A DNA stretch of 64,000 bases, from NCBI RefSeq assembly GCF_000026545.1, contig NC_011601.1; one strand, 5' to 3'. The notes under the pieces were generated by a model. That model had not been told where the DNA came from, ran no database searches, and saw nothing but the letters and a program-made list of their open reading frames with translations. Origin of the DNA: Escherichia coli O127:H6 str. E2348/69. GTDB lineage: Bacteria; Pseudomonadota; Gammaproteobacteria; Enterobacterales; Enterobacteriaceae. A program made the position numbers and the translations under genes. Below are positions 56,096 to 57,645 of the stretch, one piece after another. Every line of letters starts with the position of its first letter. Positions within the stretch are counted from its first letter, which is position 1.

Positions 56096-57645
56096 CTGTC
56101 TCTTATACACAAATCCCCACCCGGGGATTTGTGATGTCTGTCAGTCTGCTTTAGGGGGACTCTTTCCATCCGGTAGTTTCCTTCCTCCCCGGCAGCGATT
56201 TTTTGAACTTTTTCCTCACCCGTTGATCTTCTCTTATATTTCATTTTCTTCGGGTCTGTTATGGTACTTTCTGATTGTTATTCATGGGCTAACGAGCAGT
56301 TTGGACATGCCCGTCTCGGTGATCCGCGTCGTACACGACGCCTTGTGTCACTGGCCTCTTCTCTCGCTCAGCATGCAGGTCTTTCTATTGTGAAATCATC
56401 CCAGTCCACTGCTCAGGTTGAAGGTGCGTACCGCCTGATACGTAACCCGTCTGTGTCCCCGCAAGCCATTGCCGAAGCCGGATTTACCGCCACTGTAAGG
56501 GCATGTGAGGCTCATCCGCTGCTCCTCGCGCTGGAAGACACCACCACCATTAACTTCAGTCACAGTACGGCATCTGATGACCTGGGGAATACCACCACTA
56601 ACCCGAAGACGCGCGGGCTGCTGGCTCACTCTGTCCTGATGTACGCCCCCGACAGCGCCCTGCCAGTCGGTCTTATCGAACAGCAGCGCTGGAGTCGTGC
56701 CACGGACACCTACGGTGTTAAGCACCAGCGAAAAGAACGTCCCTATGAAGAAAAAGAAAGTTACCGCTGGCAGCAGGCTTCGGAGCGCATGGCCGAACGG
56801 CTGGGGGAGATACAGAAACGGGTAATCACTGTCTGTGACCGGGAAGCGGATATCTGGCATTACCTGCATTATAAAGTCAGCCACGGGCAGCGCTTCGTGG
56901 TGCGTGCAGCACAGAATCGCCGGCTGGAAGAAGCACCCGGCAAGCTCTTCGAACTGCCGGAAGTCCTGGCAACCGCGGGAAGCCACACGCTGAATGTGAT
57001 GCAAAAAGGCGGGCGGGCAGCCCGCCAGGCCCGGATGTTCATCAGTTACAGCGAAGTCAGCATAAAAAATCCCGACAACAGCGGCCAGGCGCTCCCGCTC
57101 ACGTATGTCTGTTGCCGGGAGCAGGCAGAGGACGGCGCCTGCTGGCATCTGCTGACGTCAGAAAAAGTGGCGAGTGCCGCCGATGCGCGACGTATCGTCA
57201 GCCATTACGAGCGACGCTGGCTGATAGAGGAATACCACAAGGCGTGGAAAAGTGGTGGTACATGTGTGGAATCGCTGCGAATGCAGACCCGGGATAACCT
57301 CGAGCGCATGGTGGTTATCAAGGCGTTTATCGCGGTGCGGGTGCTGGGCCTGCGGCAGGGCGGTATCAGTGAAGAAACACAAAATGACAGCTGTGAGAAA
57401 ATACTGACGCCGACAGAGTGGAAACTGCTGTGGGTTAAGCTGGAAGGAAAACCGCTTCCGTCACAGATGCCGACACTGAAATGGGCCTGTCTGAAACTGG
57501 CGAAACTGGGGCGATGGCATGACAGCAAACGCACCGGTCGCCCCGGTTGGGTAGTCATGTGGGATGGCTGGTTCAGACTTCAGGATATGGTTGAGGGTTA
57601 CCTGGTGATGAAGTCTCTTGATCAGGAGATCTGATCAAGAGACAG
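56096..57645 (+). mobile_element. IS50-like insertion sequence (IS4 family), about 1550 bp, inserted in dgcE
   Basis: Left end CTGTCTCTTATACACAAAT (17/19 to IS50 outside end); right end AGATCTGATCAAGAGACAG (reverse complement identical to IS50 inside end CTGTCTCTTGATCAGATCT); single transposase ORF terminating inside the right end; flanked by GTTGGGGG direct repeats. Confidence 0.85.
56261..57634 (+). CDS. IS4-family (IS50/Tn5-like) DDE transposase
   Basis: 457 aa; shares motif blocks with Tn5 Tnp (GDPRRTRRLV, EGAYRLIRNPSVS, VCDREADI, RFVVR, HLLTSE, YERRWLIEEYHKAWKSGG, DNLERMV, LGRWHDSKRTG). Confidence 0.85.
   Translation: MVLSDCYSWANEQFGHARLGDPRRTRRLVSLASSLAQHAGLSIVKSSQSTAQVEGAYRLIRNPSVSPQAIAEAGFTATVRACEAHPLLLALEDTTTINFSHSTASDDLGNTTTNPKTRGLLAHSVLMYAPDSALPVGLIEQQRWSRATDTYGVKHQRKERPYEEKESYRWQQASERMAERLGEIQKRVITVCDREADIWHYLHYKVSHGQRFVVRAAQNRRLEEAPGKLFELPEVLATAGSHTLNVMQKGGRAARQARMFISYSEVSIKNPDNSGQALPLTYVCCREQAEDGACWHLLTSEKVASAADARRIVSHYERRWLIEEYHKAWKSGGTCVESLRMQTRDNLERMVVIKAFIAVRVLGLRQGGISEETQNDSCEKILTPTEWKLLWVKLEGKPLPSQMPTLKWACLKLAKLGRWHDSKRTGRPGWVVMWDGWFRLQDMVEGYLVMKSLDQEI

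Follow-up and report, generated by a model that had tools for sequence, protein, structure and literature searches.

A 1550-bp insertion sequence, ISEc13, lies on the + strand at positions 56096–57645 of the window, the 64,000-nt stretch of Escherichia coli O127:H6 str. E2348/69 (NC_011601.1) that was analysed, where it interrupts dgcE (yegE). Across the full span (1550/1550 bp) it is 100% identical to E. coli E2348/69 copies annotated as 'IS4-like element ISEc13 family transposase', and about 30 such identical (100%) copies of ISEc13 are present in that strain. By sequence, the element is ISEc13, a catalogued IS4-family, IS50-group insertion sequence, the name resting on near-identity to RefSeq-annotated ISEc13-family loci as the reference. 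The dgcE–IS junction was found only in 3 O127:H6/E2348/69 genomes, and dgcE is uninterrupted in other E. coli genomes; as annotation, this is a routine call of ISEc13 disrupting dgcE in the EPEC strain E2348/69. The element is flanked by an 8-bp target-site duplication, GTTGGGGG (left copy 56088–56095, right copy 57646–57653, neither assigned a strand), placed from the sequence and from comparison with a second ISEc13 copy (L002) that also has an 8-bp duplication. The duplication length was read from these two copies, with L002 standing in for the empty dgcE site, because that site is ambiguous: the target falls in a hypervariable poly-G tract; O111:H2 strain 12A has 11 G there, and in the present genome 5 + 9 G flank the element. 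Members of the IS50 subgroup have 8–9-bp target duplications, sizes of 1350–1550 bp and ends starting 5′-CT (PMC2266710); ISEc13 has CT-starting ends (CTGTCTCTT...AAGAGACAG), a length of 1550 bp and, in two copies, an 8-bp duplication. In the literature we found passing mentions of ISEc13 and none that treats its ends.

The transposase gene (56261–57634, + strand; 457 aa), identified as an ORF with Tn5-type homology, ends in a TGA stop codon at 57632–57634. Its product matches Tn5 transposase structures over residues 6–453 (phmmer, E = 6e-84) and the Pfam models Tnp_DNA_bind (70 bits) and DDE_Tnp_1 (31 bits), with Dimer_Tnp_Tn5 at 24.1 bits, slightly below its 26.7 cutoff. The DDE residues D93, D193 and E323, together with Y316/R319/E323/K330, occupy columns that do not vary when the protein is aligned with Tn5 transposase, the latter set following the Y-(2)-R-(3)-E-(6)-K definition of PMC2266710. 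Like the transposase of IS50/Tn5, the protein has the N-terminal DNA-binding, DDE catalytic and C-terminal dimerization domains of the IS4 family, with the DDE and YREK residues of the IS50 subgroup. Identity to Tn5 transposase is 39% overall, 55% in the N-terminal DNA-binding domain, which is the best conserved part, and 37% in the catalytic core. Unlike Tn5, whose inhibitor protein starts at M56, ISEc13 has no Met at the equivalent position.

The left, outside-end-type terminal repeat is a 19-bp sequence, CTGTCTCTTATACACAAAT (56096–56114, + strand), that is identical as the left end of most relatives and matches the IS50 outside end, CTGACTCTTATACACAAGT, at 17/19 positions. One difference from the IS50 outside end is a T at position 4, as in the inside end and the engineered mosaic end. 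The ISEc13 left end includes TTATACACA, which serves the IS50 outside end as its DnaA box; in IS50, the inside end is likewise paired with a different, outside-end-type left end having TTATACACA. A sub-terminal hairpin called by the repeat finder, CACAAATCCCC-ACCC-GGGGATTTGTG, spans 56108–56133 on the + strand with perfect 11-nt arms, and the RNA fold of 56090–56160 has a predicted energy of −30.2 kcal/mol (z = −3.0). In relatives, a T-run and TTGAAC come after the left hairpin, which thereby resembles an inward-facing terminator; in those of the ISVa18 type it is a clean terminator immediately next to TTGAAC, and about 65 bp more lie at this place in ISEc13. A putative tnp promoter region (56203–56228, + strand), with TTGAAC at 56203–56208 and a single GATC at 56225–56228, was placed by alignment to relatives that have TTGAAC, about 17 nt and then GATC[T/A]GATC. 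A consensus scan called no sigma-70 promoter anywhere in 56000–57800, this putative region included.

The right terminus, 57611–57645 (AAGTCTCTTGATCAGGAGATCTGATCAAGAGACAG), contains a palindrome at 57613–57643 on the + strand. Its inner arm, GTCTCTTGATCAG (57613–57625, 13 nt), encodes codons K451-S-L-D-Q455 and carries a GATC at 57620; the loop, GAGAT, takes up 5 nt (57626–57630); and the outer arm, CTGATCAAGAGAC (57631–57643), corresponds to end positions 3–15, holds both the TGA and the GATC at 57633, and ends two bases short of the ISEc13 tip. The first-pass annotation had described a near-perfect, GATC-rich inverted repeat with three GATC sites at the inside end of the element and the transposase TGA within it. 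The repeat, the three sites (57620, 57628 and 57633) and the location of the stop in the outer arm (ORF 56261–57634) are as it described; 'near' is inexact, the repeat finder giving 13-nt arms that are 100% complementary around the 5-nt loop, and the string quoted there as the last 35 bp is 32 nt long (57614–57645). The whole element has 5 GATC sites, and the window mean is 3.97 per kb. As single-stranded RNA, a 60-nt region around the palindrome folds to −24.8 kcal/mol (z = −3.8), with 0/200 shuffles as good; as single-stranded DNA, the same region folds with z = −5.9. A further suggestion was to look for the GATC cluster in other copies, which might lack it. The cluster withstood this comparison: 1109 E. 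coli records match the last 80 nt at 99% identity or more, all three sites are kept in a copy of 97.5% identity (L093), and one GATC is lost only in decayed remnants (L094, L095 and L006).

The last 19 bp of the element, CTGTCTCTTGATCAGATCT (57627–57645, − strand), form the right, inside-end-type terminal repeat, with GATC at end positions 10–13 and 15–18, and are its putative inside-end-type transposase-binding site; the TGA occupies positions 12–14 of that site on the opposite strand and serves nearly all relatives as their stop. The sequence, the reverse complement of 57627–57645, occurs once in the window, with 0.01 matches expected at ≤3 mismatches. It agrees at 19/19 positions with the IS50 inside end, for which the Tn5 copy on plasmid pMAK2 (L001 2900–2918) served as reference, in support of the earlier description of an inside-end-type terminus of an IS50 relative with the stop codon inside it. 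IS50/Tn5 shares the two GATC sites at positions 10–13 and 15–18 and the TGA within the end; its third GATC is at end positions 21–24, that of ISEc13 at 23–26. The earlier view of the palindrome as part of an IS50-like inside end does not hold, however: the sub-terminal sequence of IS50, GGGATCAAGATCTGATC, has no palindrome, and in ISEc13 the hairpin and the third GATC come from the clade-specific inner arm. The right-end tip is thus a largely ordinary IS50-type end, and the inner half of the terminus is a hairpin arm that is conserved but has no counterpart in IS50.

An exact match of 19/19 at the end, set against 39% protein identity and about 53% identity in the interior DNA, had been read as a hint of recombination between IS50 relatives, that is, of the 19-mer having been gained by recombination or gene conversion with IS50 or a relative. 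Moreover, among the elements found, a two-GATC inside end is combined with the hairpin only in ISEc13, which on its own could look mosaic. We nevertheless consider such an acquisition very improbable. In the alignment to IS50, identity is 19/20 in the last window and 9–11/20 in the windows directly before, so that the tract is merely 19–20 bp long and coincides exactly with the functional site; neither a longer IS50-like tract nor a right-end tree placing ISEc13 inside IS50 was seen. The same 19-mer is the element end in at least five other lineages with 38–57% protein identity to ISEc13: Alteromonas (L005), Photorhabdus (L008 and L010), two gammaproteobacterial MAGs (L056 and L058) and Parashewanella (L074). 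These carriers are scattered over the neighbour-joining (NJ) transposase tree and include outgroups as well as the closest protein relatives, Photorhabdus L008 and L010, which have 21 nt (GGAGATCTGATCAAGAGACAG) in common with ISEc13. The left end, at 17/19 to its IS50 counterpart, is equally conserved, and ancestral retention is the more parsimonious account. Because the 19-mer is common to other lineages and the match to IS50 extends no further than these 19 bp, the sequence comparisons mark it as a retained ancestral binding site of the IS50 group and not a recombination product; its constancy would follow from that of the N-terminal DNA-binding domain by which it is read.

According to PMC3347997, it is established that Dam acts at the GATC sites of the IS50 end to inhibit the binding of transposase (citing Yin, Krebs & Reznikoff 1988), and Dam control is described as established for the IS50 ends and promoter (citing Yin et al. 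1988). Inhibition of binding and transposition by full methylation, with a rise in dam− hosts, is known for IS50 only (same source). The ISEc13 19-mer has its GATC sites at the IS50 positions, 10–13 and 15–18. Because it equals the IS50 inside end, including both of the sites that are Dam targets in IS50, Dam control of the ISEc13 end is plausible by homology. In a dam+ host, the two end sites would most likely be fully methylated, disfavouring transposase binding until replication renders them hemimethylated. The GATC at positions 10–13 is kept in most relatives, as is the GATC[T/A]GATC pair upstream of tnp, which IS50 also has, and the hosts found for these elements are all gammaproteobacteria. 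The second site, at positions 15–18, was lost and regained several times within the family (AGATCT versus ACATCT or ACAAGT), so that two-site Dam control is not essential; and the promoter region has one GATC in ISEc13 and two in most relatives, which counts against Dam control. For IS10/Tn10, the same source (citing Roberts et al. 1985) relates GATC sites in the inner terminus and transposase promoter to the coupling of activity to passage of the replication fork. The likeness to ISEc13 is mechanistic only: both have GATC at the inner terminus, but IS10/Tn10 belongs to a different IS4 subgroup, its end sequences are unrelated and it has an antisense RNA.

The inner arm, which is absent from IS50, is found in a clade that comprises ISVa18 and relatives from Vibrio, Alishewanella, Shewanella, Pseudoalteromonas and Xenorhabdus, with 49–57% protein identity to ISEc13. 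These elements have the same left-end 19-mer as ISEc13, the same inner arm, GTCTCTTGA, in K/M-S-L-D/E codons pairing with the end tip, and a stop codon that, as in ISEc13, is usually within the end. They differ in their right ends (...GATCACAAGT, ...CACATCT or ...CATATTT), which have one GATC only, in their stems and loops, usually 9–12 bp and longer than that of ISEc13, respectively, and in a second, upstream hairpin (AAGGATGGTT/AACCATCCTT) that is conserved in the crown clade, sits within the ORF and is lacking in ISEc13. Altogether, about 25 distinct relatives have a stem, 8–14 bp long and closed by a loop of 5–20 nt.

Several observations bear on whether this stem-loop is under selection. 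First, across a clade with about 57% protein identity, the inner arm is constant at synonymous sites: S452 is encoded by TCT in 21/22 members and L453 by CTT in 20/21. The five most codon-invariant of 114 conserved degenerate columns all lie within the last 22 codons, the median major-codon fraction over the 114 columns being 0.40. This constancy points to selection on the stem-loop of the ISEc13/ISVa18 clade. Second, the 13th pair shows a compensatory change, GATCAG/CTGATC in ISEc13 against GATCAC/GTGATC in the Vibrio parahaemolyticus element L003. With so little variation in the outer arm (4/10 core pairs never vary and 1 has a double change), formal covariation gives weak evidence on the terminal stem, and synonymous-codon conservation was used in its place. 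Third, and counting against the stem, the Photorhabdus subclade (L007–L016), the closest protein relatives at 54–57%, has lost it (KSVD codons TCA/TCG GTT) and has nonetheless multiplied to many copies.

That proliferation after stem loss would fit a palindrome that is a functionless by-product, with a K-S-L-D C-terminal peptide encoded by chance in codons complementary to the end, and the alignment of its K, S and L residues with AAKDL of Tn5 transposase indicates that the peptide is partly constrained. Constraint on the protein cannot, however, yield six-fold-degenerate codons (TCT, CTT) that are 95% identical while codons for the conserved G, L and A residues nearby are scrambled, with a median major-codon fraction of 0.40, and the G–C to C–G change between ISEc13 and L003 would be left unexplained. 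We regard a by-product as distinctly unlikely.

Since the evidence for the stem is mainly conservation of the inner arm, pairing is not its unique explanation, and a sequence-specific site would fit that conservation as well. The palindrome might act as double-stranded DNA, with the inner arm a pseudo-end, either a partial transposase-binding site or a site for a host protein, that modulates how the inside end is used, be it by acting as a decoy, through non-productive pairing or through altered access of Dam, SeqA or Fis. By construction the inner arm copies end positions 3–15, the GATC sites are symmetric in the arms, and the ISEc13 inner arm has AA in place of the CT tip, so that it could bind protein without being cleaved. 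Most relatives, however, copy only positions 3–11, which are common to both ends, and not the end-specific positions 10–19; many lack the inner GATC, using GAA, GAG or GAC at that codon; and an arm spacing of 5–20 nt is unusual for cooperating protein sites. The varying loop length argues for pairing over two spaced protein-binding sites, and we hold a pseudo-end in any of these forms to be unlikely. As a discriminator of RNA from DNA pairing, or of strand, G–U wobble patterns have no power here, because synonymous-site transitions are fixed by the reading frame.

A Rho-independent terminator, serving the transposase transcript or transcription entering from the right flank, was rejected as extremely improbable. 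The stem is stable and the family has a terminator-like hairpin at its left end, but neither strand has a T-run (the + strand continues with AG and then arbitrary flanking sequence, the − strand with TTCATCACC), relatives likewise have none, and the terminator scan made no call. Two other candidates were set aside. A sigma-70 promoter using TTGATC of the arm, directed outward or inward, has no acceptable −10 element at 16–18 bp, and the scan was negative; the sole match to a known Rfam RNA family, sR5, was a chance, sub-threshold hit (17 bits, where the gathering score is 40; E = 0.54).

We think it probable that two parts jointly account for the right terminus of ISEc13: an ancestral IS50-type end, with Dam control by homology, and a selected inner-arm stem. 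The inner arm (57613–57625) is an inverted copy of end positions 3–15 within the last transposase codons, and with the end tip it makes up a 13-bp stem enclosing the stop codon. How the stem acts is a more tentative matter. With low confidence, we infer that it works as a stem-loop where the transposase transcript ends, so that the message would have a defined 3′ end that resists exonucleases and includes the stop codon, whatever the flanking DNA. A pure 3′-exonuclease barrier is insufficient, because it leaves unexplained the second hairpin of the crown clade inside the ORF. It is conceivable, at rather long odds, that the ISEc13/ISVa18 clade evolved a cis-regulatory stem-loop, joined in the crown group by the second one upstream, that pairs the last codons with the inside-end tip.

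Separately, a solo copy of the 35-bp palindrome lies between trmL and lldD in 792/5426 complete E. coli genomes (15%). This scar is the exact product expected from a deletion between GTCTCTT at the left end of ISEc13 and GTCTCTT in its inner arm; no target duplication flanks it, and the resident sequence is short by about 79 bp. Tn10 and Tn5 reportedly undergo 'nearly precise excision', said to have been described by Foster et al. in Cell in 1981, in which deletion between short direct repeats near the ends leaves a small palindromic scar. The E. coli scar is similarly a small palindrome from an inverted-repeat element; the ISEc13 event differs in being deduced from a fixed chromosomal scar. 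It would be a concrete genomic consequence of the ISEc13 inner arm.

For the family, these comparisons indicate that an IS50 inside end with Dam sites and an embedded stop codon is an ancient, widely shared design and not a peculiarity of Tn5, and that asymmetric ends, one with the DnaA box and one with GATC, are conserved across gammaproteobacterial relatives. Modestly new is a sub-terminal stem that overlaps the end and appears to be selected in one large clade. If functional, the stem would be an additional regulatory element in a transposon family that is among the best studied, and it could matter for engineered Tn5-like systems derived from these relatives. If the cis-regulatory proposal is true, the same 13–30 nt would simultaneously bind transposase, be a target of Dam, supply the stop codon and form an RNA or single-stranded DNA structure. 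That would constitute a previously undescribed layer of control, for example by giving the mRNA a 3′ end and a stability that are independent of insertion context or, alternatively, by slowing termination and so favouring cis action of the nascent transposase.

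The right tip of the 1550-bp insertion sequence lies two bases beyond a perfect palindrome. Within AAGTCTCTTGATCAGGAGATCTGATCAAGAGACAG (57611–57645), a repeat finder identified two 13-nt arms, 57613–57625 and 57631–57643, that are 100% complementary and enclose a 5-nt loop, GAGAT. Three GATC sites fall in this region (57620, 57628 and 57633), out of five in the entire element, against a window mean of 3.97 per kb. The TGA of the 457-codon open reading frame (56261–57634) occupies 57632–57634, within the outer arm. The sequence, repeat finder and reading frame therefore bear out the first-pass description of a palindrome carrying three GATC sites and the transposase stop codon, except that the inverted repeat is perfect (13/13-nt arms) rather than near-perfect, and that the string quoted as 35 bp, correct in sequence, is 32 nt long. 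Single-stranded, this region is much more stably folded than its dinucleotide shuffles, both as RNA (−24.8 kcal/mol, z = −3.8) and as DNA (z = −5.9). We rejected a terminator reading because no T-run follows the stem on either strand, and the palindrome matched no Rfam family.

The element (56096–57645) has CTGTCTCTTATACACAAAT as its left end and an 8-bp duplication, GTTGGGGG, at both flanks. It is ISEc13, being 100% identical to the E2348/69 copies annotated as such, of which that genome holds around 30. Its transposase hits structures of the Tn5 enzyme at E = 6e-84, shares the Tn5 set of domains and retains intact DDE and YREK residues. With its CT ends, 1550-bp length, 8-bp duplication and Tn5-type protein, ISEc13 belongs to the IS50 subgroup of the IS4 family (5′-CT ends, 1350–1550 bp, 8–9 bp duplications; PMC2266710), and the palindrome is a feature of a kind already known, in an IS already catalogued. 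Near-full-length copies occur in 873 of 5426 complete E. coli genomes; the junction with dgcE, a diguanylate cyclase gene, is found only in three O127:H6/E2348/69 assemblies, and dgcE is uninterrupted in other strains. The target was a strain-variable poly-G tract of dgcE (56088–56095 and 57646–57657), which has 11 G in O111:H2 strain 12A and JS316, where the gene is frameshifted; the E2348/69 lineage lacks intact DgcE here because the IS interrupts the gene.

Compared with IS50 as carried in Tn5 on plasmid pMAK2 (L001, 1385–2918), the right end of ISEc13 is identical to the inside end CTGTCTCTTGATCAGATCT at 19/19 positions, and the left end to the outside end at 17/19, whereas global DNA identity is only about 53%. 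The final 20 alignment columns match at 19/20 and preceding 20-column windows at 9–11, so identity to IS50 does not extend past the functional site. Between the transposases, identity is 55% in the N-terminal DNA-binding region and 37% in the catalytic core. The 19-mer of the IS50 end is indeed retained despite a diverged transposase (19/19 versus 39% protein identity).

The suggestion that this reflects recombination between IS50 relatives is not supported. Scanning one genome per species with the protein as guide yielded 80 loci (38–57% identity), all in gammaproteobacteria and mostly in Photorhabdus, Xenorhabdus, Vibrionaceae and Alteromonadales, to which we joined four plasmid-borne relatives. 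The exact IS50-type 19-mer ends elements in Alteromonas (L005), Photorhabdus (L008 and L010), Parashewanella (L074) and two MAGs (L056 and L058), and on a neighbour-joining tree its carriers lie both inside and outside the clade holding ISEc13. Other members have single-base or short end variants (…CACATCT, …CACAAGT, …CATATTT) that eliminate the second GATC, with AGATCT and ACATCT states alternating over the tree. On the simplest reading, ISEc13 would have kept the ancestral end.

In IS50/Tn5, Dam methylation of the promoter GATC lowers transposase expression and methylation of the end GATC reduces transposase binding (PMC3347997, citing Yin, Krebs & Reznikoff 1988). Because both GATC sites of the IS50 end are shared with ISEc13, a similar Dam effect is likely here, and the Dam interpretation of this end is reasonable but unproven. 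GATC at end positions 10–13 is nearly universal among the surveyed relatives; two-site Dam control, judged from these ends, is not universal. Upstream of the gene, IS50 and most relatives carry GATC[T/A]GATC about 17–18 nt after TTGAAC, whereas ISEc13 has one GATC, at 56225. The GATC cluster is kept in the other ISEc13 copies examined: the terminal 80 nt are at least 99% identical in 1109 E. coli records, a copy at 97.5% identity (L093) keeps all three sites, and one site is lost only in decayed remnants (L094, L095 and L006, on Shigella pCP301).

The stem itself forms a separate layer, with none at the corresponding position in IS50 and other outgroups. First, the inner arm of ISEc13 falls in codons K-S-L-D-Q, and in around 25 distinct relatives a core, GTCTCTTGA, within K/M/Q-S-L-D/E codons pairs with the tip TCAAGAGAC, forming stems of 8–14 bp with loops of 5–20 nt. 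Second, in a codon alignment of 22 clade members (median pairwise protein identity 57%), the inner-arm Ser codon is TCT in 21/22 and the Leu codon CTT in 20/21; across 114 conserved columns of four- or six-fold degeneracy the major codon has a median fraction of 0.40, and the five most invariant of these columns all lie within the last 22 codons. Third, the 13th pair is compensatory, GATCAG/CTGATC in ISEc13 versus GATCAC/GTGATC in a Vibrio parahaemolyticus relative (L003). Elsewhere in the stem formal covariation is weak, the outer arm being the near-invariant binding site. One Photorhabdus subclade lost the stem, its codons there being TCA/TCG GTT. Phylogenetically, the stem is a shared derived feature of the clade that unites ISEc13 with the crown group of relatives.

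A second hairpin, AAGGATGGTT-N9-AACCATCCTT, lies inside the reading frame of the crown clade, within the last 30 transposase codons (L003 1812–1840; around 24 relatives, alignment columns 39–67; ISEc13 equivalent 57564–57592). Its GGA, ACC and CTT codons are frozen, and in three sequences, by what look like independent events, a U-A pair has become C-G through a double change coupled to F-to-L and T-to-A substitutions. The hairpin is missing from ISEc13 and from L020, another relative.

The left tip of ISEc13, GTCTCTT, recurs in the inner arm as a direct repeat, and a deletion between the two copies would leave CTGTCTCTTGATCAGGAGATCTGATCAAGAGACAG. This 35-bp perfect palindrome, two facing inside-end tips, occurs in the trmL–lldD spacer of BL21(DE3) (NC_012971.2; L087, 400–434), strain C and others. 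The palindrome together with its flanks is carried by 792 of 5426 complete E. coli genomes; it replaces around 79 bp found in other strains and lacks a target duplication.

At the left end of relatives, a hairpin overlaps end positions 13–19 and is followed directly by a T-run, TTGAAC and GATC[T/A]GATC, an arrangement that resembles a terminator facing inward plus a promoter sensitive to Dam. ISEc13 has around 65 extra bp between the hairpin (56108–56133) and TTTTTTGAAC (56198–56208). Its natural left end (56096–56114) is the family consensus, with T at position 4 as in the inside end; it matches at 17/19 positions CTGTCTCTTATACACATCT, the engineered hyperactive 'mosaic end', also with T at position 4, and retains TTATACACA, the DnaA box of the IS50 outside end. 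Target duplications in the family are 8, 9 or 10 bp, and many insertions split a palindromic host sequence exactly at its centre, for example aggcaGCCATTGGC–IS–GCCATTGGCtgcct (flanks of loci L033, L034, L036, L037, L042, L044, L050, L053, L085 and others), a pattern suggesting that REP- or terminator-like hairpins are preferred as targets; two ISEc13 copies had 8-bp duplications and non-palindromic targets.

Residue 53 of the ISEc13 transposase is Val (GTT); the corresponding residue of Tn5 is Met56, at which its inhibitor protein starts, and Vibrio relatives have Met at that position (…ADMEGAYRF). As ISEc13 also has no Met in residues 2–100, an Inh-type truncated protein probably does not start at residue 53. 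Antisense to the gene, terminator-like hairpins with T-runs (minus strand, 57008–57026, 57071–57089 and 57169–57181) might halt antisense transcripts arriving from the right; 56000–57800 holds six terminator-like sites versus 1.5 expected from shuffles.

Starting from the directly established sequence identity, conservation pattern and stem stability, we propose that transposase would bind the 19-mer, that Dam methylation would modulate this binding and that the stem would work as a nucleic-acid structure. Our preferred role for it is in the transposase mRNA, where it would form a 3′ stem that does not depend on context and keeps the stop codon, because every full-length transcript must hold both arms, because loop length is free and because the family also insulates its left end with a terminator-like hairpin. 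The main rival, a double-stranded-DNA pseudo-end or decoy, leaves the second conserved crown-clade hairpin inside the reading frame unexplained, as does the transcript role. Codon and pairing conservation point to the hairpin as having been added to the IS50-type inside end in one clade and kept by selection, which is the modestly new point.
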